Positions 20-32,377 of a stretch of 35,686 bases of DNA are shown in pieces. The translations under genes and the position numbers were made by a program. Source of the DNA: a virus. Lineage: Duplodnaviria; Heunggongvirae; Uroviricota; Caudoviricetes. The notes beneath the pieces are model-generated. The model was not told the origin of the DNA. It searched no databases and saw nothing but the letters and a program-made list of their open reading frames with translations. Location: the IMG/VR virus record IMGVR_UViG_2923302340_000008. One strand, 5' to 3'. Position 1 is the stretch's first letter. Every line of letters starts with the position of its first letter.

Positions 20-1315
20 TTAATTTTTTATTGCTTCATTATGGGGCATGGTTGGGGCAAACTCGCTTAACTGTGTATTTAACAAAGCTAGCTGTGCATT
101 ATTGTTTTCAGACATCCATTTTCCGTATACCTGAAATACCATTTGCGCATCTGCATGGCCCATCTGGTTTGCTATAAATGCCGGGTTGGCACCAGCTGTC
201 AGCGACCAGCAGGCATAAGTATGTCTCGACTGATATGATTTTCGATGGCGGAGTCCGGCACGTTTTATCGCTGCGTCCCACATCTGCCTTATTGAGTCAA
301 CGGTAAAATGGTCACCATAATTTTTTACTCTCGCTGACACTTCAGGTTGAAAAACAAAGGTGCATTTTTGTTTTTCTGTTCTGCCATACTCTCTGAGGTG
401 AACATCAATGATATGCTCTTTACTCAGTCTCGTTAATGTCATCTGACTCCGGAGAGCGTCGATTGCTGGCTTAATAAGATGAATGACCCGATTGGTTCCC
501 GCCTGTGTTTTTGGTACCGTGAAACGGTCTTTTGCTAAATTTCTCCTGATCATCATTGTTCCATTTTTCAGATCTATGTCCTCCCATCCAAGTGCACACA
601 GCTCACCAGGGCGAACGCCAGTATAAACAGAAACACACCATAAATTTTTTGCTTGCTGATTTCTGCACGCATCGATAAGACGGATAAATTCCTCCCGCGA
701 AAGAGGATCCGGAATGGTTCTTGATTCCTTTAATGGCGAGATCCCCTTAAACGGATTATCTGCCAGGTAACCGTTATCAACACCAAACTGGAACACGGCG
801 TTAAGATTTGTCATGTAATTATTTACAGTTACAGCCGATCTCCCTGGTTGTGTAACAATATAGTTACTTTTGGGGATCTGGTATCCAGTCAGTAGCTCTT
901 TACGAACCTCCAGTAATTTTTCTTTATTAATCGATGAGGCAAGATTTTTTTCACCGATTATGCTCAGGATATTTTTGATGACGGCACGGTATGTGTTGAG
1001 TGATGTTTTGGCGACTTCAGTTTCTTTCAGTGCCAGAAATTTTTCAGCCAGTTCTTTTATGGTTAAATCTTGTCGGGCCTCACCAAATTTTTCCAGATTG
1101 CGTGAGGAGGGAAACTGTTTTGCATAGTCGAAAACACCAGTTTTTATTGCGTAACAAACAGAGGAGCGTAGTTCACCTGCAACGCGCCTGTTTTTTGCTG
1201 TGTCAGGAACCCCCAGATTTTCCCTGACTCTTACGCCTTTATAAACAAACCAGATACGTAATTTCCCTCCATGGTTTTCCACGCCTGTCGGATATTTCAT
1301 TTCAACTTCTCTCAT
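20..1315 (-). CDS. int: Phage tyrosine integrase (site-specific recombinase)
   Basis: 431-aa ORF with a tyrosine-recombinase-like C-terminal region (…RHTYACWSLTAGANPAFIANQMGHADAQMVFQVYGKW…). It lies at the prophage end, downstream of an excisionase-like gene. An alternative start at the second Met (MKYPTG) is possible. Confidence 0.85.
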   Translation of the reverse strand: MREVEMKYPTGVENHGGKLRIWFVYKGVRVRENLGVPDTAKNRRVAGELRSSVCYAIKTGVFDYAKQFPSSRNLEKFGEARQDLTIKELAEKFLALKETEVAKTSLNTYRAVIKNILSIIGEKNLASSINKEKLLEVRKELLTGYQIPKSNYIVTQPGRSAVTVNNYMTNLNAVFQFGVDNGYLADNPFKGISPLKESRTIPDPLSREEFIRLIDACRNQQAKNLWCVSVYTGVRPGELCALGWEDIDLKNGTMMIRRNLAKDRFTVPKTQAGTNRVIHLIKPAIDALRSQMTLTRLSKEHIIDVHLREYGRTEKQKCTFVFQPEVSARVKNYGDHFTVDSIRQMWDAAIKRAGLRHRKSYQSRHTYACWSLTAGANPAFIANQMGHADAQMVFQVYGKWMSENNNAQLALLNTQLSEFAPTMPHNEAIKN

Positions 1316-1334: not shown

Positions 1335-1586
1335 TCAAGTAAGATGACGTCTTGGTCTTGCTGATGCCTGGCGCTCAATCCAGCGATCAATTTCTTCCAG
1401 GTTGTAAAAGCATGGACTGTTATCCCATGGCATACCGTCATGAGCGACATGCTTATATTCCCTTCCTTCCATAAACGATTTTTCCCGGGCCTTTTTTAAC
1501 GTACCTTTTTTTATTCCTTTCAGCGCAATTAACTGCTCTTCGGATACCCATTTGCCGGGAGAGACAATCATGATTACTTCGCTCAT
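1335..1586 (-). CDS. xis: Excisionase-like small DNA-binding protein
   Basis: 83-aa basic ORF immediately upstream of and co-directional with int, the classic xis position. The family is not identifiable by eye. Confidence 0.55.
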   Translation of the reverse strand: MSEVIMIVSPGKWVSEEQLIALKGIKKGTLKKAREKSFMEGREYKHVAHDGMPWDNSPCFYNLEEIDRWIERQASARPRRHLT

Positions 1587-1658: not shown

Positions 1659-4130
1659 TTAAGAATCAGCCTGACTCGGGATCAGTTTTTGCCAGATAAC
1701 TGAAACGTATTTTGCCTGGTAACGGGCGTCATCAAGTGCATTATGGCGCTCACCTTCGAATGGAATAGCCGTTCTGGCATCGAAGTCTATGGCTTTCCCC
1801 AGCTCAACGATTGTGCGTACATCGCGATCGTTGTAGTAACGCCACGGACAGGGGATCCCCTGCCGTTCGTATGAACGGCGCAAAATCGTGTTGTCGAAGT
1901 TGGCTCCATTTCCCCAGACCTGAACAAAAAATTCACCGGAGTTTTCGTCGATAAATTCCCGCAATTGTAACAGTGCATCATCTAACGGGATTTCATCGGT
2001 CATAATGGCAGATTGCGCTTCGCGTGATTGCTTAAGCCACCATTTAATGGTGTCCCGATCAATGACTCCGCCAGCAGTTTCCAGATCGATAGTCTTACTA
2101 AATTCCGGTCCCATATCTCCGGTTTGCGGATCGAAAAATATTGCACCTATTGAGATGATCGGGGCATCAGGATTTTTTCCCATGGTTTCAAGGTCGATCA
2201 TTAGATGGTCACACGTCCTGCTGGTGGATGTGATTTCGTGATGACCGTTCACCTTAATTGAGTGATCTGCCGTCTCGCCAGTTTCATTATCGCTATCGTG
2301 ATGCTGATTGCCGCCAGTGTTCTCCTTGTGTGGATGTTCAGCGCCTTCCATTTCCTTCGGATCATCTTCCTGAACTTCAACCTGATACTCTTCATCGAAT
2401 GTTTCCTGGTATGTTGCGTCGCCCATCACCGCGCCACAATCAGGGCAGTTGCCGCCGCCGGTCTGACCGCAGGCGGTGCAGACTTTTTCCACTTCCTGTT
2501 GCGCCACTGGTTCAGGCTGTTTCGTTTCTGGCTCGTTTTGTAACGCATTTGGGCTGTTTTGTTCCGCTTTTTGGTAGTTCCGTTCCGATTCATGCTGGTT
2601 CTGGTTCACAGAATCGCGGGTCTGGATCCCCTTAACCCATTTCGGATCATTCGGGTCACTAATCCCTTCAACAAATTCACCACGTGATGCAGCAAGCAAC
2701 TTATCGGCGTCAGGCTGGCTGATATTGGCTGCCTGCATAATTTTGTTTACTTCGTCAGCGGTAACTTTTATCGGTTCTGGTTGTTCTGAATCTTCAGCGG
2801 TATCTACATTTTGCGGTAAGCCCGTGTATGTGCCATTTTTTCGGGCAAAATATTCTTCTTTAGTGATTTCAGTGGCGCCAGCAGCCAGTGCCTTATCCAG
2901 ACCAGAAAGTTTGTTTGCGCGACCGTATTTTTCTCCGTCCTTATCTGCGAAGAGGAAATAGAACGGCCCCTCACGCTCTACAGATGGTTCAGCTTCCGGC
3001 GCGGTTTCATTTTTTGGGATATCAGATACCTCAGTTTCCACTGCATCAGTTTGTGTTTCTGATGACTGGAGAACATCAACAGTGCCCAGGTCTGTTTCTT
3101 CATTCTCAAACACGCCCTTTGTCGTCAGGTATTCAGTAATGTATTTGTTCAGTGCCACAGGGTCTTTGTGAATGTCGATCGGACGTTCACGGACAAGGCC
3201 AAAAATAGTCTGGCGGTCGTAGCGAAGGGCATCAGGCTGTTTGCGCATTGATGCCGAGATACGCTTCCAGTCTTCACGGTCGTTGTCGATAACTTCATTT
3301 TTTGCCCAGCGATGGATGCTGCCGTCAATGTTTCCGGCATCCACATCACCAGGCCAGAGAGCGTAGGCCAGTTCGTCATCCAGTGTTTTCCATGTCTGCT
3401 TGTATTCGCGATGAATGGCAGCAATGACCGGGCTGAGTTTTCCTGTTGAATTTTCAGTGTGCTGTTGATTGGCTCTGGCGCGGGCGAGATCAACAACAGA
3501 CGTGTATTTTCCGGTTTCCTTGCGTTCACCTTCGCGACGTTTTTTCCAGATGCGCATCTCTGCCTGAATTTCGGGCCATTTGGCACCTGGCTTACATTTA
3601 TGCTTAACCCACCCGATGGCATGCAGCTTAAGCTCCGGATACATGGCGTTAACTTCTGGCATTTTCATCAACGCTTCAACGATATGTCCGTCGAATGTTG
3701 CCATGTCTTCCTGCAACAGTTCCTGCGCGCTAATCACCATATCAACGGTGATGTTTTCACATGTGTCGAACTTAACCATGACAGCGTTCTGTACTTCAGG
3801 GGCCAGCTTGTCAAAAGTGACGTTTATCGGATCTGATTCAGTCTCAACCGGGACAAAGGAAGCAGACTCCTCATCCCAGCGGTTTTCCTGCATATATTCA
3901 GCATCCCAGGAATCGAGGGCAGGGCGGGGTATGTCAGGTTTATCCTCGCAGACAATAAATTTATAAGCGCAGTCCTGAGCAGCCGTATAATGTTCCAGGA
4001 ACTGCCAGTGAAATTTTGCTCGAGCACGGCGTTCGTCGCCAGCTTCAATGGCTGTGGCTACAGCCACAGCGCCTTCTTCCCTTGTTGCCAGTTCGTCAGG
4101 AATAGCGGCGCAAATAAAGACTTTACTCAT
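1659..4130 (-). CDS. Phage exonuclease with C-terminal DnaQ-like (DEDDh) 3'-5' exonuclease domain and internal Cys4 zinc ribbon
   Basis: 823-aa ORF. The C-terminus carries DLETMG…GNGANFD…HNALDDARYQAKY motifs typical of DEDDh exonucleases. A CTACGQTGGGNCPDCG zinc-ribbon lies mid-protein. A GAGG RBS lies about 10 nt upstream. It occupies the exo position of the leftward early operon. Confidence 0.75.
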   Translation of the reverse strand: MSKVFICAAIPDELATREEGAVAVATAIEAGDERRARAKFHWQFLEHYTAAQDCAYKFIVCEDKPDIPRPALDSWDAEYMQENRWDEESASFVPVETESDPINVTFDKLAPEVQNAVMVKFDTCENITVDMVISAQELLQEDMATFDGHIVEALMKMPEVNAMYPELKLHAIGWVKHKCKPGAKWPEIQAEMRIWKKRREGERKETGKYTSVVDLARARANQQHTENSTGKLSPVIAAIHREYKQTWKTLDDELAYALWPGDVDAGNIDGSIHRWAKNEVIDNDREDWKRISASMRKQPDALRYDRQTIFGLVRERPIDIHKDPVALNKYITEYLTTKGVFENEETDLGTVDVLQSSETQTDAVETEVSDIPKNETAPEAEPSVEREGPFYFLFADKDGEKYGRANKLSGLDKALAAGATEITKEEYFARKNGTYTGLPQNVDTAEDSEQPEPIKVTADEVNKIMQAANISQPDADKLLAASRGEFVEGISDPNDPKWVKGIQTRDSVNQNQHESERNYQKAEQNSPNALQNEPETKQPEPVAQQEVEKVCTACGQTGGGNCPDCGAVMGDATYQETFDEEYQVEVQEDDPKEMEGAEHPHKENTGGNQHHDSDNETGETADHSIKVNGHHEITSTSRTCDHLMIDLETMGKNPDAPIISIGAIFFDPQTGDMGPEFSKTIDLETAGGVIDRDTIKWWLKQSREAQSAIMTDEIPLDDALLQLREFIDENSGEFFVQVWGNGANFDNTILRRSYERQGIPCPWRYYNDRDVRTIVELGKAIDFDARTAIPFEGERHNALDDARYQAKYVSVIWQKLIPSQADS

Positions 4131-4223
4131 TTTGTTTTAACCTCATGACAGATTTAAGGATGAACAAATCCCTGCCATTGCTGGCATATAAGAATGAAAC
4201 CGGATATTTATTACGGAACTGTT

Positions 4224-4415
4224 TTAAAGACCTGCCGGGATTTCGATATTATCCTGGTGAATAACTTTATCGACCGGGTAACAGTTACCGGGAATTTTCT
4301 GTTCGGTTGCTGCAGTCATACACTCCTGCATTGTCCTGTGAACACTGACTGCAATATCAACTGGCTCTCCGGAAACAAGAAAAACTGTCAGAACAAGCGC
4401 AAATGCTGAATTCAT
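4224..4415 (-). CDS. ydfD: YdfD-like small lysis protein with N-terminal hydrophobic segment
   Basis: 63-aa product (MNSAFALVLTVFLVSGEPVD…) immediately downstream of dicB, with its start overlapping the dicB stop. Length and position match Qin ydfD. Confidence 0.7.
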   Translation of the reverse strand: MNSAFALVLTVFLVSGEPVDIAVSVHRTMQECMTAATEQKIPGNCYPVDKVIHQDNIEIPAGL

Positions 4416-4600
4416 TGTGCACATCCTTTTGGCATCAGACGTAAACGAGCCAGCATTGAAACAATGCATATTTTATTTAATAGCTCCCGTTCTTGTTTTC
4501 TCTTGTTAATGGCATCTTCAGTAAATACAGGGTTACTGATAGTGACACCAATTTCAAAACAACCTTCAGACGTATTAACGTTTGGTAATAACGTTTTCAT
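4412..4600 (-). CDS. dicB: Cell division inhibitor DicB
   Basis: 62-aa product MKTLLPNVNTSEGCFEIGVTISNPVFTEDAINKRKQERELLNKICIVSMLARLRLMPKGCAQ matches recalled DicB nearly residue for residue. A GAGGA RBS lies 8 nt upstream. dicF lies immediately upstream. Confidence 0.85.
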   Translation of the reverse strand: MKTLLPNVNTSEGCFEIGVTISNPVFTEDAINKRKQERELLNKICIVSMLARLRLMPKGCAQ

Positions 4601-4771
4601 TATCGCGTCCTCAACAATGAATTTTGTGATGCAGTGCCTGGTGCCTCCAGGTGACGTTAACCAGTTAACAATTAACGCCGGATACAGAGAATCCACCCAT
4701 AACACTGTTTTTGGTTTTAACTGTTCCGCGTGCGCTTAGCCGCATTCACCGCATCACAAAATTCACTTTAA

Positions 4772-4827
4772 AAACGGCGGCAGAGCAGTCACGGAGTAAA
4801 ACTGATACCGCCAAACGTCACCAGAAA
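4772..4827 (-). ncRNA. dicF: DicF small regulatory RNA (ftsZ translation inhibitor)
   Basis: The reverse complement of 4776..4827 reads TTTCTGGTGACGTTTGGCGGTATCAGTTTTACTCCGTGACTGCTCTGCCGCC, matching the recalled about 53-nt DicF sequence. A GGCGG…CCGCC stem and a U-tract follow. It sits directly upstream of dicB as in Qin. Confidence 0.85.
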
Positions 4828-5102
4828 ATTGATAACAGAGGGCGTTGCAGCGGGGTTGTCACTTAAGCGTATGGTTAACCTGACAACTCGGTGTCCTCAA
4901 CGGGGAAGGAATAACCCCGCCATACTTACCGCCGCGCCATTTCGCGGGTTGCCACAACCGGAAGCGCACGGTCGAATTAAATTTAACGACACCGTACAGT
5001 GAGACGAACTTCGCCGTGCGCTTTCGTGTTGTGTGCCTGCTTTTAACCACGTCAGGCGAGGTGGTATCCTTCTTATCCCGAATAACCAAGAAGGAAATCT
5101 AT

Positions 5103-5303
5103 ATGACTAAAGAAGAATTTGTCTCTTATATTTTTGATAAAACGGTTGAAATGTATGCCGCTACTTACGGGTCCTGTAATCCTCTGAATAAACCAGAGGG
5201 GAAAGATGATTTCGACAAAATTTACCGCTTCTTGGAGGATCGCTATATCAAAAGGTTAGAGGACGCAGGGATCAAATCCCCAGTGAAGTCACCATTGTCC
5301 TGA
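5103..5303 (+). CDS. Hypothetical 66-aa protein encoded on the strand opposite to the dicB operon
   Basis: ATG preceded by a strong RBS (AAGAAGGAAAtctatATG). Codon composition is protein-like. No recognisable family. Confidence 0.4.
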   Translation: MTKEEFVSYIFDKTVEMYAATYGSCNPLNKPEGKDDFDKIYRFLEDRYIKRLEDAGIKSPVKSPLS

Positions 5304-5649
5304 GAACTTGCAGGACGTCATGATCGTAACTTCCATCCAAACCGCGACGGCAAATTGCTTCTCGTATTACCGGAAGCAGTTCGCTGGAAATCTCGGTGCA
5401 TATTTCACCTGCTAATACGCCTGGTTCAAGTGAGAATATTGGTGAACTTACGGTCTTGGTCTCGACAGTTTCAGAGTCAGTGCCAACATTATAAAGCTCA
5501 ACGAAAGCGGTCTTGATTTTCCGGGCCAGATCTTTTGCTGGCTCGCTTGCAATATCTTTCCCGATTTCTCGCAGCACAGAATGCAATGTATGAGCTGCTG
5601 TTTTCTGTACATCAGACGGTAAATCTTTAAATTCCATCGTCAGCCTCAT
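5272..5649 (-). CDS. Hypothetical 125-aa protein of the dicB operon
   Basis: Its start overlaps the ydfA-like stop (TGATG), suggesting translational coupling. Composition is protein-like. Family unknown. Confidence 0.5.
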   Translation of the reverse strand: MRLTMEFKDLPSDVQKTAAHTLHSVLREIGKDIASEPAKDLARKIKTAFVELYNVGTDSETVETKTVSSPIFSLEPGVLAGEICTEISSELLPVIREAICRRGLDGSYDHDVLQVLRTMVTSLGI

Positions 5650-5801
5650 CAGTCAGTGTTTCTGGCTAACCAGCAACGCGCGCCAGATTCGGTTTTAAAC
5701 GTTTTGCTTTTGGTATATGTCATCGCGGTGAACGTACCGTCCTGGTTGGGGAACACGCCACATACCAGAGATTCGCTGTTGCCAAGATCGATAGTATCCA
5801 T
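5649..5801 (-). CDS. ydfA: YdfA-like small protein (first gene of dicB operon)
   Basis: 50-aa product MDTIDLGNSESLVCGVFPNQDGTFTAMTYTKSKTFKTESGARCWLARNTD resembles recalled Qin YdfA. It lies downstream of the dicA-like gene. Confidence 0.6.
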   Translation of the reverse strand: MDTIDLGNSESLVCGVFPNQDGTFTAMTYTKSKTFKTESGARCWLARNTD

Positions 5802-5914
5802 GCTGACCTCATTTCCCCTTAACGCCGGGGTAGCGGAACTGTTTGCTGAGAACACCGTGCGGTGTGTTGATGGAGGTGATTTGGTTTTCTCATTGTTTTT
5901 CGTCAAGGTTTTTT

Positions 5915-5936
5915 GATGAGAAAACTCAAGTATTGG
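5915..5936. promoter_or_regulatory. Candidate DicA operator in the dicB-operon promoter region
   Basis: gaTGAGAAAACTCAAgTATTGG is a near-exact copy of the site at 6450..6470. It contains the inverted repeat TGAG-aaaa-CTCA. It lies between the dicA stop and the ydfA start. Confidence 0.5.
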
Positions 5937-5993: not shown

Positions 5994-6401
5994 TTATTGA
6001 TGCTTGTTGCGTTTGCGAGCCTCTAATAGCTCGGTGAACAGGCGATTAAAATTCTCAACGCGGGCGCGGAGTTCGCTGAGTTGTGCTTGTTGCTCTGATT
6101 TAGGAAGTGCGCGATACAAACGCAGCATCTCTAACTCATCTTCCGATAAGTCTAAGGCACTATCGAGTGAAACAGGGGGAGCTGGTGTTTTGTCCTCGTC
6201 GCCAAACAGTATCCAGGTTGGTGAACATTGCAATACCTCGGCGAGGCGATGCAAATTTTGCCCGCGCGGGGCTGTATGGTCACTTTCCCATAATGAAATT
6301 GATGAGCCAGATACGCCAGCAGCTTTGCTTAAACCGTTTTGACTTAAGCCTACCTGCTTACGTCTTTCTCTAATGCGTTGACCTAAAGTTTTCTCGTTCA
6401 T
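5994..6401 (-). CDS. dicA: DicA-like HTH (XRE-family) repressor
   Basis: 135-aa product from MNEKTLGQRIRERRKQVGLSQ… with an N-terminal HTH and the motif LQCSPTWILFGDEDK recalled from DicA. It is divergent from the dicC-like gene. Confidence 0.8.
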   Translation of the reverse strand: MNEKTLGQRIRERRKQVGLSQNGLSKAAGVSGSSISLWESDHTAPRGQNLHRLAEVLQCSPTWILFGDEDKTPAPPVSLDSALDLSEDELEMLRLYRALPKSEQQAQLSELRARVENFNRLFTELLEARKRNKHQ

Positions 6402-6449: not shown

Positions 6450-6470
6450 CATTGAGAAAACTCAATATTG
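6450..6470. promoter_or_regulatory. Candidate DicA/DicC operator in the divergent intergenic region
   Basis: atTGAGAAAACTCAAtATTGG with inverted repeat TTGAG-aaaa-CTCAA. It overlaps a putative dicC promoter (TTGACT at 6423..6428) and lies just upstream of the dicC RBS. Confidence 0.5.
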
Positions 6471-6478
6471 GAGGTGCG

Positions 6479-6706
6479 ATGTTTAAATCAGACGTAATTA
6501 ATTTTTACGGTACGAAAGCCAAAGTAGCGAAAGCTGCTGGCGTTGACCCATCTGCTGTTTCTCAATGGCAAGAGCTGGTTCCTGAAGGTCGCGCGATGCG
6601 TCTACAGGAGGCATCTGGCGGCGAGCTTCTGTATGATCCCAAGGTTTATGACGAATATCGTAAGACGAAGCGGGCGGGGCGGTTGAACAATGAAAATCAC
6701 TCCTGA
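6479..6706 (+). CDS. dicC: DicC-like Cro-type regulator
   Basis: 75-aa product with C-terminus …LVPEGRAMRLQEASGGELLYDPKVYDEYRKTKRAGRLNNENHS as recalled for DicC. GGAGG RBS. Divergent from dicA. Confidence 0.75.
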   Translation: MFKSDVINFYGTKAKVAKAAGVDPSAVSQWQELVPEGRAMRLQEASGGELLYDPKVYDEYRKTKRAGRLNNENHS

Positions 6707-8621: not shown

Positions 8622-10178
8622 ATGAATGCCTATAAATTCAGAAATAATGATGAGATTGGAAAATTAGAGGCGGAAACTGATTCTTATCTTGATGCTTGTT
8701 TTTATGAGTCCAATGTTTTTAAAGGTATTGTGAATTTTGACTCTACTGAGAAGAATCCTGATTTTACAAGAAGAATTATTGTTGGAAGAACAGGAAGCGG
8801 TAAGTCTGCGTTGCTTAAAAAAATATTAGACAAAGGAAATATTAAGCTGCATGACACAATAGAGGCAGAAAATACGATATTTGAACATATTAATAACAAT
8901 GTGTTTATATCTGATTTGATCTCGAAAGGGATAGATTTACGTGGGTTTTATAAATCGTTATGGCTGCATGTATTACTTATGAAAGTTATACCAGCCGTTT
9001 ATCGTTCTTCCTATCAAAGCTTTTTTGAGGAAATTAAAGATCTTATTGGTGGTAAGAAGAAACCGTATAAACCAGAAGTTGCGAATGATTATATTGAACA
9101 ATTTAAAGAAAATTTCTTCAATGATAAAGCGCTCATTGAAATAAGTAACAAGCTTGAAAGTGATTTGTCATTCAAACTCGGAAATTCCGCTGTTGGTGTG
9201 GGTGGTAAAATATCTAATTCTGATACAGCCAAAATACAATCAGAAACTTCAAGTTATGTGAGTCGTGAACTTCTTTTTAAACAAAAAGAACTTATTAAAA
9301 TACTTAAAGAGGAGTTCGCTGACTCAAACCAGGTTAGAATAGTAATCAGTATCGATGATTTAGATAAATCTTGGTTAAGCACGAGCGCCATCAGATATGA
9401 CTTTATTAATGCTCTTCTTGAGGCCTTTCGAGAATTATTAGATATAAAGTCGGTTAAGGTTCTGATATCAATAAGAACAGATATTTTAATGGGAATTTAT
9501 AAAAGTAGTTTAAGGCAGGATGAGAAAGATCAATCTTTAATATATTCCATATCATGGAATAAAACGGAAATAAGAGAGATTATTGATGCTAGAATTAACC
9601 ATTTGGTTAAAAATAGATATCAATCAAATAAGTCTGTATTAATGAAGGATATTTTTAATTTTACAGTTGAAGGTATTGGAGCAGATGATTATATCCTTGA
9701 CAGAACAATGCTTAGGCCTAGAGATGCAATTAATTTCGTAAATATATGTCTTTCTGAGTGCGATGGTATGGTTAACATGAATGAAAATATTGTGTTAATT
9801 GCCGAAGAGAAATTTTATTCGTCCAGAAAGAGAGCTTTGGTTACAGAATGGAAAAGCATATATCCGTTTATCGAAGAATATTTGGATGTGCTTTCCTTGA
9901 TTTCATTTTCTGATTTTACAGTCTCAAACATAGGACAAGCAGTAAAAGATGATATATCGCAGCATTTACTTGATAGATTGACTGTAGTTAAAGAGGATGA
10001 TCAACATACAAAAATATTGATGAATTTTGAGGAGTTACTTAAAGTCTGGTTCGTCGTAGGCGTGGTTGGCATAAGGAAAACAGTATCTTTAATTTTATAT
10101 TCATCTTTTGATAAACCTAATTTGGATATTACTGATATGAAGAGAGATTTTGTAATACATCCGTTGTTTGATAGGTAA
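8622..10178 (+). CDS. AT-rich P-loop NTPase of unassigned family (candidate defence or abortive-infection protein)
   Basis: 518-aa ORF. Walker A is IIVGRTGSGKSALLKKI near residue 55. Walker B-like VRIVISIDDLDKSW lies near residue 243. Candidate sensor and arginine motifs are ISIRTD and LRPRD. Base composition is markedly AT-rich versus flanks. A TATAAT hexamer sits at 8578..8583 and a GGAG RBS upstream. Confidence 0.75.
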   Translation: MNAYKFRNNDEIGKLEAETDSYLDACFYESNVFKGIVNFDSTEKNPDFTRRIIVGRTGSGKSALLKKILDKGNIKLHDTIEAENTIFEHINNNVFISDLISKGIDLRGFYKSLWLHVLLMKVIPAVYRSSYQSFFEEIKDLIGGKKKPYKPEVANDYIEQFKENFFNDKALIEISNKLESDLSFKLGNSAVGVGGKISNSDTAKIQSETSSYVSRELLFKQKELIKILKEEFADSNQVRIVISIDDLDKSWLSTSAIRYDFINALLEAFRELLDIKSVKVLISIRTDILMGIYKSSLRQDEKDQSLIYSISWNKTEIREIIDARINHLVKNRYQSNKSVLMKDIFNFTVEGIGADDYILDRTMLRPRDAINFVNICLSECDGMVNMNENIVLIAEEKFYSSRKRALVTEWKSIYPFIEEYLDVLSLISFSDFTVSNIGQAVKDDISQHLLDRLTVVKEDDQHTKILMNFEELLKVWFVVGVVGIRKTVSLILYSSFDKPNLDITDMKRDFVIHPLFDR

Positions 10179-10408
10179 TAGCAATGTGAATATGTTGAGA
10201 CTACTGGAAAAGCTATAACTCCTTTAGTAAAGTTTCCGTGGGTGCTTGAGGCTATCTGTCTCAGGCATGAACACCAAAGGCAGATAGAGAAAAGCCCCAG
10301 TTAACATTACGCGTCCTGCAAGACGCTTAACATTAATCTGAGGCCAATTTCATGCTAGACACATGTAGGTTAGCCTCTTACGTGCCGAAAGGCAAGGAGA
10401 AGCAGGCT

Positions 10409-10564
10409 ATGAAGCAGCAAAAGGCGATGTTAATCGCCCTGATCGTCATCTGTTTAACCGTCATAGTGACGGCACTGGTAACGAGGAAAGACCTTTGCGA
10501 GGTACGAATCCGAACCGGCCAGACGGAGGTCGCTGTCTTCACAGCTTACGAACCTGAGGAGTAA
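10409..10564 (+). CDS. hokD: Hok-family type I toxin (HokD/RelF-like)
   Basis: 51-aa product MKQQKAMLIALIVICLTVIVTALVTRKDLCEVRIRTGQTEVAVFTAYEPEE matches recalled Hok-family sequence. GGAGA RBS. An in-frame upstream extension from 10352 is present. Confidence 0.85.
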   Translation: MKQQKAMLIALIVICLTVIVTALVTRKDLCEVRIRTGQTEVAVFTAYEPEE

Positions 10565-10780: not shown

Positions 10781-11044
10781 ATGATGAACATGATGATGAA
10801 CATCGAAGAACTGCGTAAAAATTTTTGTGAAGATGGCCTCTATGCTGTGTGCGTTGAAAATGGAAATCTTGTTAGTCATTACCGCATTATGTGTTTGCGA
10901 AAGAATGGGGCTGCGTTAATTAATTTTGTGGATGGTCGAGTGACAGACGGATTTATCTTGCGCGAAGGTGAGTTTGTCACTTCATTACAGGCACTGAAAG
11001 AGATCGGAATAAAAGCAGGCTTTTCAGCTTTTGCAGAAGAATAA
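10781..11044 (+). CDS. Hypothetical protein
   Basis: 87-aa ORF with an AAGGA RBS and tandem Met codons. Family unknown. Confidence 0.45.
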   Translation: MMNMMMNIEELRKNFCEDGLYAVCVENGNLVSHYRIMCLRKNGAALINFVDGRVTDGFILREGEFVTSLQALKEIGIKAGFSAFAEE

Positions 11045-19433: not shown

Positions 19434-19793
19434 ATTAATATTAAATCGGATTATTTTTAGCGCTGAATGTGAAATTTAAATAAAAAGGACTCTTCCATGA
19501 GTCAAAATCCTTGAAATCTTAAGGGTAAGATAAAAGGTCATTAGACAGAATGACACGTTTTATTAATAAATAAAGCTATTGTTTCATTCGTGTGTTTTTC
19601 TTTACAAAAGTAATCCTTGCTATGGTTGGTTAATCATGCGTTAATGGTGTTCTGGTTTGTTACAAAATTATCTGAAGCAGTCATTGTTATAATTTTATTA
19701 TTTGTACCTCTTGAGATTTCCTTGTTGGTTTTTCTCTCTGATATTTTTTTTCGGACCATTCTGCCCAAGGGCTAACTTCTTCAAAAGGTAATA

Positions 19794-20009
19794 ATGATGT
19801 CTAACAAAATGACTGGTTTAGTGAAATGGTTTAACCCTGAAAAAGGTTTTGGTTTCATCACGCCGAAAGATGGTAGCAAAGATGTGTTTGTCCATTTCTC
19901 AGCTATTCAGAGCAACGATTTCAAAACGTTAACTGAGAATCAGGAAGTCGAATTTGGTATTGAGAACGGACCTAAAGGCCCCGCGGCTGTTCATGTTGTG
20001 GCACTTTGA
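19794..20009 (+). CDS. Cold-shock protein (CspB/CspI-like)
   Basis: [38 protein letters not shown]… carries RNP1/RNP2 cold-shock-domain motifs. A long AT-rich 5' leader precedes it. Confidence 0.9.
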
Positions 20010-20213
20010 GGTAGAAAATATTACAAACCATATTCACTTTAGATGCCCGTGTTGCCATGGTTCTCAGTATAGAACATCATCTTTTGATGTTTCTGACAGG
20101 AATCCTTTCGGGGCAAAATGTATCTTTTGTAAATCAATGATGATTACATTTGATAATATTTCACAATACTTAAATGTTAGCCGTCTATCGTTAGATTTAA
20201 GAAAGTGAAAATG

Positions 20214-26236: not shown

Positions 26237-28045
<1,809 letters not shown>

Positions 28046-31700: not shown

Positions 31701-31802
31701 GCGATTGGCTCACATGGACACACCATCACCGTTAACGCTGCTGGTAACGCGGAAAACACCGTCAAAAACATCGCATTTAACTATATTGTGAGGCTTGCAT
31801 AA
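28776..31802 (+). CDS. stf: Side tail fibre protein Stf (lambda orf401/orf314-type)
   Basis: N-terminus [26 protein letters not shown]… and C-terminus …[28 protein letters not shown] closely match recalled lambda Stf. A long Ala/Ser-rich repetitive core is present. Confidence 0.9.
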
Positions 31803-32377
31803 TGGCATTCAGAATGAGTGAACAACCACGGACCATAAAAATTTATAATCTGCTGTCCGGAACTAATGAATTTATTGGTGAAGGTGATGCATATATTCCG
31901 CCTCATACAGGTCTGCCAGCAAACAGTACCGATATTGCACCGCCAGATATTCCGGCTGGTTTCGTGGCTGTTTTCAACAGTGATGAGTCATCGTGGCATC
32001 TCGTTGAAGATCATCGGGGTAAAACGGTTTATGACGTGGCTTCCGGCGACGCGTTATTTATTTCTGAACTCGGCTCATTACCGGAAAATGTCACCTGGTT
32101 ATCCCCGGAAGGGGAGTTTCAGAAGTGGAACGGCACAGCCTGGGTGAAGGATACGGAAGCAGAAAAACTGTTCCGGATCCGGGAGGCGGAAGAAACAAAA
32201 AACAGCCTGATGCAGGTAGCCAGTGAGCATATAGCGCCGCTTCAGGATGCTGTGGATCTGGAGATCGCAACGGAGGAAGAAACCTTGTTGCTGGAAGCCT
32301 GGAAAAAGTATCGGGTGTTGCTGAACCGTGTTGATACATCAACTGCACCGGATATTGAATGGCCAGCCCTACCGTAG
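31802..32377 (+). CDS. tfa: Tail fibre assembly protein Tfa
   Basis: 191-aa ORF overlapping the stf stop (TAATG). Size and position match lambda Tfa. Confidence 0.8.

Follow-up and report, generated by a model that had tools for sequence, protein, structure and literature searches.

The window analysed here, i.e. the whole stretch of 35,686 nucleotides held as IMG/VR virus record IMGVR_UViG_2923302340_000008, is essentially one Qin-like lambdoid prophage of Escherichia coli, and our subject is a short run of its minus strand that carries the small RNA (sRNA) gene dicF, the cell-division inhibitor gene dicB and the lysis gene ydfD, together with a conserved RNA domain that precedes DicF. Among E. 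coli genomes that are closely related, the prophage adjoins rspB at its integrase end and a truncated ydfJ at the other, like Qin in K-12. On the minus strand the genes run in the order dicA, ydfA-like, a 121-aa open reading frame (ORF), dicF, dicB, ydfD, exonuclease, xis and int. A first-pass annotation had described the three genes of interest as lying on one strand, downstream of a DicA-like repressor and upstream of exonuclease, xis and int; matches in Pfam and NCBIfam and the annotations of relatives agree with that order.

The dicF-dicB-ydfD cassette

When the whole window was searched with cmscan at the gathering threshold, Rfam family RF00039 matched DicF at 4775-4826 (minus strand) with 72.5 bits against a gathering score of 48 (E 2.7e-14), over model positions 1-52 of 52, and the resulting alignment leaves both helices intact with 0 non-canonical pairs flagged. 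The dicF gene of K-12 MG1655 (53 nt) aligns to window positions 4827..4775 with 52 of the 53 bases identical, the sole difference being a C to G change at the final base preceding the U-run. Taken at its K-12 annotated length of 53 nt, the RNA (4775..4827, minus strand) consists of a single-stranded 5' seed, UUUCUGGUGACGUUU, and then a stem-loop, GGCGGUAUCAG...CUGCUCUGCCGCC; the seed and the loop that pair with ftsZ, xylR and pykA are unchanged from the characterised DicF. The first-pass annotation had put DicF at 4776..4827, which is correct to within one base, and it had taken 80% identity and intact stems in a covariance search as the measure of a genuine dicF; the identity found is 52/53, and the stems are intact at 72.5 bits. 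By transfer from the near-identical K-12 RNA, DicF presumably represses ftsZ translation in an Hfq-dependent manner (PMC5069750).

DicF folds into a hairpin with a minimum free energy (MFE) of -16.6 kcal/mol that is followed by UUUUU, and the hairpin and U5 run together (4765..4812, minus strand) form an intrinsic terminator, at the place where termination occurs in K-12 (PMC5069750, PMC10448788). A simple terminator scan missed this element because its loop is long and interrupted. The terminator would make the 3' end of the 53-nt form and, as it lies between dicF and dicB, expression of dicB and ydfD would require read-through.

The protein-coding part of the cassette is equally well conserved. 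DicB (62 aa; 4412..4600, minus strand) matches Pfam PF05358 over profile positions 1-62 of 62 with 136.7 bits (cut-off 27) and NCBIfam NF049927 with 132.8 bits (cut-off 100), and it is identical to K-12 DicB at 62 of 62 residues; with 100% identity, the MinC-dependent inhibition of division known for the K-12 protein may reasonably be taken over. YdfD (63 aa; 4224..4415, minus strand) matches DUF1482 (PF07358) over profile positions 1-57 of 57 with 92 bits (cut-off 25) and differs from its K-12 counterpart in a single residue, A6V (62/63 identical). No NCBIfam model matches it; the NCBI Prokaryotic Genome Annotation Pipeline (PGAP) names the identical sequence in CP53 'lysis protein YdfD'. If the K-12 data carry over, YdfD should bind IspG and lyse dividing cells (PMC8835842). 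The ATG of ydfD (4415-4413) overlaps the TGA of dicB (4414-4412) as ATGA at 4415-4412, as read from the sequence. In other words, the two small ORFs proposed as a 62-aa DicB and a 63-aa YdfD-like protein with overlapping stop and start are just that, and both are homologous to the K-12 proteins of those names.

One detail of the earlier description does need changing: DicB was said to follow DicF immediately, and in fact 174 nt (4601-4774) and the intrinsic terminator of DicF intervene. This spacer (4601..4774, minus strand) is the 5' leader of dicB and ends in the dicB ribosome-binding site, GAGGA. It is kept in phages that have kil in place of dicB, and in P1-like phages, with BLAST blocks in Rac-SA53, P7, D6 and Shigella phage 75/02. 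Over 4568-4777 (minus strand), Rfam STnc100 gives a match that is below threshold (34.5 bits against a gathering score of 47), and this region is probably a shared 5' leader with a conserved hairpin, CACCUGGAGGCACCAGGCAC.

The dicF-dicB-ydfD module is therefore real, and it is already known: this is an ordinary, intact copy of the Qin cassette. The closest characterised system is the dicBF operon of K-12 Qin (b1570-b1577), to which dicF (52/53), DicB (62/62) and YdfD (62/63) are nearly identical and with which the window shares the order of genes from dicA to int, a divergent dicC, rem and hokD in the right arm and the rspB/ydfJ site seen in related genomes. The two prophages differ in that K-12 has ydfB and ydfC where the window has the 121-aa ORF and a convergent 66-aa ORF, in that ydfE and intQ of K-12 are pseudogenes disrupted by insertion sequence (IS) IS2 whereas the exonuclease, xis and int of the window are intact, and in their immunity: operators of the form TGTTAG-N6-CTAACA in K-12 contrast with ATTGAG-N4-CTCAAT in the window, and the DicA proteins are 57% identical.

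Related copies are abundant. A 1-kb module query found matches in 4741 of 5426 complete E. coli genomes, 3772 of which cover at least 80% of the query; genomes with any match have it in a median of 2 places and in up to 10. In the phage collection, eight records cover at least 80% of the cassette query, including HannyBb, Tritos, PhiR42_1 and mEp460_ev081. A paper from 2016 reported 0 DicB or DicF matches among ~2,000 phage genomes (PMC5069750), and mEp460_ev081 has since been discussed as a functional phage with dicB, dicF, dicAC and rem (PMC10448788). The viable phages Tritos (OV696610), mEp460_ev081 (LR597641) and HannyBb (PP925841) are 97-99% identical to the window in DNA over 4150-5000, and Tritos has the identical int-xis-exo-ydfD-dicB-DicF arrangement, with DicF annotated; these phages differ from the window in being complete genomes with head and tail genes, where the window prophage has lost portal to J, and Tritos also differs in retaining ydfC/ydfB-type genes and in having a different CI. 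The prophages of enterohaemorrhagic E. coli (EHEC) O157:H7 (CP-933M/O/P and the Sp prophages) carry the same cassette, with multiple dicF/dicB copies in different lambdoid prophages (PMC5069750), next to other flanking genes and at other integration sites. The module as such thus adds little, having been studied since the 1980s, being present in most E. coli genomes and being already annotated in a viable phage.

Control of the operon and competing explanations

The cassette lies downstream of a repressor gene and a PL-like region that resemble those of K-12 in layout more than in sequence. The dicA-like gene (5994..6401, minus strand) encodes 135 aa and matches NCBIfam NF007257, 'transcriptional repressor DicA', with 239.4 bits (cut-off 101); its Pfam content is HTH_3 only, with no S24 peptidase (RecA-cleavable) domain, and it is 57% identical to K-12 DicA. 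Divergent from it is a dicC-like Cro-type regulator (6479..6706, plus strand; NCBIfam NF007282 165.3 bits, cut-off 130; Pfam P22_Cro) that is 70% identical to K-12 DicC. From these sequences, the immunity region is heteroimmune relative to K-12. Between the two genes lies a candidate operator, the perfect palindrome ATTGAG-TTTT-CTCAAT (6450..6466), and upstream of the ydfA-like gene a putative dicBp/PL-like promoter region (5879..5931, minus strand) has a -35 element TTGACG (5907-5902) placed between the operator-like half-palindromes CTTGAGTTTTCTCATC and ATGAGAAAACCAAAT. The PL-like region and the dicA-dicC intergenic region have an exact 13-nt repeat in common, which in the former stands beside the -35. 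In K-12, TGTTAG-N6-CTAACA-type palindromes flank the dicBp -35 TTGACC and occur between dicA and dicC; the candidate operators of the window occupy these same positions with the same geometry and a different sequence. The point at which near-identity to K-12 sets in coincides exactly with the beginning of the PL-type leader (tcaacacacc...) and marks a recombination boundary. The degenerate operator palindrome taken by itself is not enriched, with 3 matches in the window against 1.45 expected. The shared repeat and geometry look as would be expected if a repressor and its cognate operators had been exchanged together as a single module, and on this basis, which is purely architectural, we infer that the operon is repressed by its local DicA homologue.

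A homologue of rem, the K-12 antirepressor of DicA, is also present (10793..11044, plus strand), 79 of 83 residues being identical to K-12 Rem (function in PMC10448788), so the window has both a short DicA-type repressor without S24 and a Rem-type antirepressor, as in a Qin-type operon. In K-12, DicA represses dicBp ~22-fold, Rem derepresses it ~165-fold, with filamentation that depends on DicB and DicF, and in a strain deleted for the dicBF operon ~1% of cells turn the promoter on spontaneously in a DicC-dependent manner; DicF itself builds up in stationary phase (all PMC10448788). According to the K-12 literature, Fis and Hfq add to the silencing, and Cnu/H-NS affects the binding of DicA. 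The first-pass annotation had called this a complete operon that would be silent under DicA. Complete it is, with all three components intact; given stationary-phase DicF, spontaneous switching and derepression by Rem in K-12, 'silent' is only approximate there, and repression in the present prophage is a deduction from its layout.

Our preferred reading, in which we have high confidence, is that the region is the dicF-dicB-ydfD part of the early-left (PL-type) operon of a Qin-like lambdoid E. coli prophage, orthologous to K-12 dicBF and working by the K-12 mechanism; identity and architecture are what we observe here, and the molecular functions are known from K-12 work and transferred by near-identity. 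How would such an operon run? Judging from the architecture, a DicA-family repressor would sit on the palindromic operators flanking the PL-like promoter upstream of the ydfA-like gene and keep the operon mostly off. Relief of repression, whether by the prophage's own Rem, by DicC/Cro-like spontaneous switching or by stress, would yield a polycistronic RNA. In K-12, RNase III acts on this transcript to give a 190-nt species, the 53-nt DicF owes its 5' end to RNase E and its 3' end to termination at the DicF hairpin, and a 72-nt form comes from read-through transcripts via RNase III (PMC10448788, PMC5069750). The same processing here would place an RNase III cut ~137 nt upstream of DicF, an RNase E cut at the DicF 5' end and the 3' end at the intrinsic terminator of DicF itself. 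In K-12, ftsZ, xylR, pykA and manX are repressed by DicF together with Hfq (PMC10448788, PMC5069750), and the RNA encoded in the window would be expected to pair with the same four mRNAs and block their translation. Read-through transcripts would give DicB and, by translational coupling at the ATGA overlap, YdfD. DicB, which in K-12 affects FtsZ rings by way of MinC and prevents phage infection that depends on ManYZ (PMC10448788), would bring MinC to the septum so that division stops, and would also block ManYZ-dependent entry of phage DNA. YdfD would inhibit IspG and cause lysis dependent on cell division; in K-12, YdfD binds IspG and lyses dividing cells, and co-expression of DicB prevents that lysis (PMC8835842).

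Several observations weigh against this reading. The last base of DicF is altered, at a position that is unpaired in the Rfam model, and YdfD carries its one substitution. The putative terminator 3' of ydfD is weak; the terminator-like site found there (4186-4173) is a weak 5-bp stem only and was discarded. The inferred -10 (CAAATC) is weak as well, and a scan for consensus promoters returned none on the minus strand in the PL-like region. DicA is just 57% identical to the K-12 protein and the operators differ, so the Rem-DicA and DicA-operator specificity of K-12 may not carry over to this allele. Might the module then be a decaying relic, its genes resembling dicF, dicB and ydfD yet unexpressed or non-functional in a defective prophage? 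The loss of the portal-to-tail genes to an IS3-family insertion and deletion would fit such decay, as would the weak PL-like -10, but none of the three genes is interrupted, their identity to functional K-12 alleles is 98-100%, the left arm (full exonuclease, xis, int) is more intact than that of K-12, and K-12 Qin is itself defective and nevertheless expresses functional DicF and DicB; we regard a relic as very improbable. Control by something other than the adjacent DicA-like protein, i.e. constitutive leakiness, nucleoid proteins (H-NS, Fis, Hfq) or the repressor of another prophage, seems to us improbable, if less so. The divergence of DicA and DicC from K-12, the different operators, the failure of the scan to find a consensus promoter and the K-12 reports on Fis/Hfq silencing and Cnu/H-NS all speak for it; the recurrence of the palindrome beside the repressor gene next to the PL-like -35, as part of the 13-nt exact repeat and in K-12-like geometry, speaks for the neighbouring repressor instead.

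A further explanation concerns what the cassette is for. Lambda Kil and Rac KilR are small proteins of the early left operon that block FtsZ-ring function; they differ from DicB, which acts through MinC according to the K-12 literature. The cassette could mainly be an early lytic host-takeover module of the phage, a functional analogue of lambda Kil, and not a domesticated host-control operon. The same cassette stands in the PL arm of the viable phages Tritos, HannyBb, mEp460_ev081 and PhiR42_1, and in related phages the same leader is followed by kil where dicB would be. On the other side, the present copy sits in a defective prophage unable to make virions, and K-12 has host-level effects to show, namely phage exclusion through ManYZ and metabolic DicF targets. 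Takeover as the main role is unlikely in our judgement, though it deserves more weight than relic status or foreign control, and the takeover and host-control views are mutually compatible. On the preferred reading, an operon orthologous to K-12 dicBF, the window offers a natural allele whose left arm is intact and whose DicA, DicC and operators are heteroimmune, and which could help to test Rem-DicA specificity.

A conserved RNA domain upstream of DicF

The only element here that may be new lies just upstream of DicF. A conserved, structured 5' domain of the DicF precursor (4832..4972, minus strand; core 4844-4958, ~115 nt) corresponds to the 5' part of the 190-nt species of K-12. Its proposed fold, all on the minus strand, has a closing helix P1 (4958-4951/4851-4844), a P2 hairpin CCGCG/CGCGG (4947-4943/4936-4932), a 3-bp helix P3 (4930-4928/4892-4890), a variable hairpin P4 (4919-4915/4905-4901), a 9-bp helix P5 (4889-4881/4861-4853) with an inner 3-bp helix (4880-4878/4868-4866), and a pseudoknot GUAUGG/CCAUAC (4925-4920/4874-4869) in which CCAUAC belongs to the P5 loop. 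Copies of the domain were gathered by two pattern scans of IMG/VR and one of GTDB genomes; 30 representatives were aligned and yielded a structure and from it a covariance model, R1, against which 54 matches (50 distinct) were realigned. The many chance matches that the GTDB-genome pattern scan returned in unrelated metagenome-assembled genomes were rejected by model R1, and the domain of the window scores 163 bits with it.

Comparison of the 50 distinct sequences favours the fold. Standard pairs occupy 96.7% of cells, against 34-54% when the 3' partners are slid by 1-3 columns; pairs changed on both sides number 11, against 1-4 with slid partners; 0 of 500 shuffles reach the observed pairing values; and the variable pseudoknot pair is UA in 44 sequences, CG in 3 and UG in 3, all statistics that are supportive and not conclusive, the sequences being closely related and mostly from enterobacterial phages and the alignment (A5) having been fitted to model R1, though the pseudoknot lay outside that model. 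P4 has been swapped for at least 10 different self-complementary stems, and its loop retains a pyrimidine-rich UCCUU-like motif. A coding origin for the conservation was considered and is ruled out by the 1-nt indels that occur in P4 among close relatives; hairpin replacements also differ in length by other than multiples of three. Thermodynamic z-scores upstream of DicF are unremarkable (0.24 for 4828-4970 and -1.18 for 4765-5010), so that support for the fold comes from comparative analysis alone. An anti-terminator pairing suggested by the MFE fold, between GGCGG of the domain and CCGCC in the 3' arm of the DicF terminator, was rejected as a conserved feature because lineages with GGUGG/CCACC terminators retain GGCGG in the domain.

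The domain has a distribution of its own. BLAST against phages resolves the dicF region into separately distributed noncoding blocks, and the upstream block is found also in phages without DicF proper: Stx2c phages, Ayreon, 2H10, cdtI and P1. In phage cdtI the domain belongs to the PL leader and lies ~270 nt downstream of a strong PL-like promoter just after cI; in phage P1 it belongs to the leader of the ban operon, where it overlaps the annotated "dicF-like region" and has its start ~15 nt downstream of the Pban promoters, which are under C1 control. Prophages of Citrobacter, Trabulsiella and Erwinia have it as well. Almost always it stands 25-45 nt before a GC-rich hairpin and a U-run, with seed and loop varying by lineage. 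Of 82 unique downstream flanks screened automatically, 79 contain a stable hairpin whose end meets a U-run; in two of the other three the hairpin is of this kind but longer, and the last is a Shigella copy that has decayed. These downstream hairpins fall into at least 8 lineages with differing loops and 5' seeds, DicF being one; most begin UUUGGCGG, and that of P1 is unrelated.

Two side observations touch on this region. Two IMG/VR contigs (L130 and L139) have copies of the domain without the 5' arm of P1, with other upstream sequence joined inside the domain, and K-12 has a partial look-alike, ACGCGAAAGCGCATGGCGAGG, farther upstream (L002, ~6100-6165). Both may be traces of recombination or duplication in this stretch of noncoding DNA.

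Is the domain already known under another name? Rfam 15 gave no match to it, even at E values up to 10, and no description of the upstream domain was found in the literature searched. Faubladier and Bouché reportedly noted, in 1994, dicF-like homology in prophages at the level of sequence. The put RNAs of phage HK022 are alike in kind, as structured cis RNAs in a repressor-controlled early operon, upstream of terminators. They differ in architecture, put being ~70 nt with two stem-loops and present as putL and putR (PMC9378689), whereas the upstream domain measures ~115 nt, combines four internal helices with a closing helix and a pseudoknot, and is found in a single copy per genome. That single copy was seen in the window, Tritos, cdtI and P1, none of which has a second, putR-like copy, and model R1, run with filters off, found no match in HK022 18-40.7 kb; homology to put was therefore dropped.

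We tentatively propose, giving it somewhat less than an even chance, that 4844-4958 is a distinct, multi-helix, pseudoknotted RNA domain and that DicF is one member of a family in which a conserved scaffold is joined to a variable terminator sRNA. Such a scaffold could direct maturation through RNases III and E or stabilise the sRNA, which fits the 190-nt intermediate and the RNase dependence of K-12. It could also tune termination or read-through at the adjacent terminator and so gate dicB, ydfD, exo, xis and int, which fits its position after PL or Pban. Alternatively, it could be a regulatory RNA itself, acting via the conserved pyrimidine-rich P4 loop. If functional, the domain could change the view of the "DicF gene", which would be one of several scaffold-plus-variable-sRNA cassettes, and it would offer a testable explanation for control at the first terminator of lambdoid and P1 early operons, or for sRNA maturation.

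The remainder of the prophage

Downstream of the cassette, the left arm continues with a full-length exonuclease of 823 aa (1659..4130, minus strand; Pfam Rv2179c-like 3'-5' exonuclease domain, 226.7 bits; 'exonuclease' in PGAP), an excisionase (1335..1586, minus strand; Pfam DUF1233 putative excisionase, 108 bits) and a tyrosine integrase (20..1315, minus strand; Pfam Arm-DNA-bind_2 and Phage_integrase), for which the PGAP-equivalent start gives 20-1300. The N-terminus of the exonuclease has 258 residues identical to the translated ydfE pseudogene of K-12, ydfE being an IS2-truncated remnant of such an exonuclease.

Upstream of the cassette, the first gene of the PL-type operon is ydfA-like (5649..5801, minus strand; Pfam DUF1391 and PGAP annotation of homologous loci); 43 residues of its 50-aa product are identical to the 51-aa YdfA of K-12. 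Homology to K-12 stops after ydfA and restarts ~160 nt upstream of DicF, with ydfB and ydfC replaced by the 121-aa ORF (5272-5637, minus strand) and, convergent with it and overlapping its 3' end, the 66-aa ORF (5103-5303, plus strand). PGAP treats both as conserved hypotheticals in related genomes, and Pfam and NCBIfam have no match for either. An anti-phage defence role was also looked for with PADLOC, which gave no match for DicB, YdfD, the exonuclease, the 121-aa and 66-aa ORFs or the 518-aa ATPase described next.

This P-loop ATPase of the Sll1717 family (8622-10178, plus strand; NCBIfam 178.8 bits, with weak KAP_NTPase and nSTAND1 matches) is located between the replication genes and hokD, and bears a weak likeness, far under the cut-off, to an 'anti-phage protein' model. 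Among the matches listed, related prophages that do not have the Sll1717 ATPase have DUF4209 or DUF2326 proteins instead, and the site may be a variable hotspot for defence genes or morons.

The far end of the window lacks the full set of head and tail morphogenesis genes of an inducible lambdoid prophage. An IS3-family transposase (26340-27386) follows the portal gene, and beyond it there are only the C-terminus of J, lom, a tail-fibre gene, tfa and a Pin-type invertase; the prophage is defective, an IS3-family element having replaced the head and tail genes from portal to J. The element as a whole (26340-27553, minus strand) has an rve-domain transposase and is ISEc31-like in related genomes. 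An Rfam 'isrC' match (27399-27521, 150 bits) just upstream of the transposase ORF may belong to this same IS3-family element. Another Rfam match, 'IS009' (32145-32343, plus strand, 221.7 bits), falls wholly within the tfa coding sequence (31802-32377) and is probably a match to coding sequence, with no separate RNA gene. Finally, the right arm carries a hokD/sok type I toxin-antitoxin locus (10240-10564, plus strand; HokD identical to K-12 at 51/51, sok matching RF01794 with 118 bits). The window also has a cspI-type cold-shock gene (19639-20055, plus strand) with a cspA-thermoregulator leader (RF01766, 109.8 bits); this gene and hokD/sok are both standard Qin cargo.

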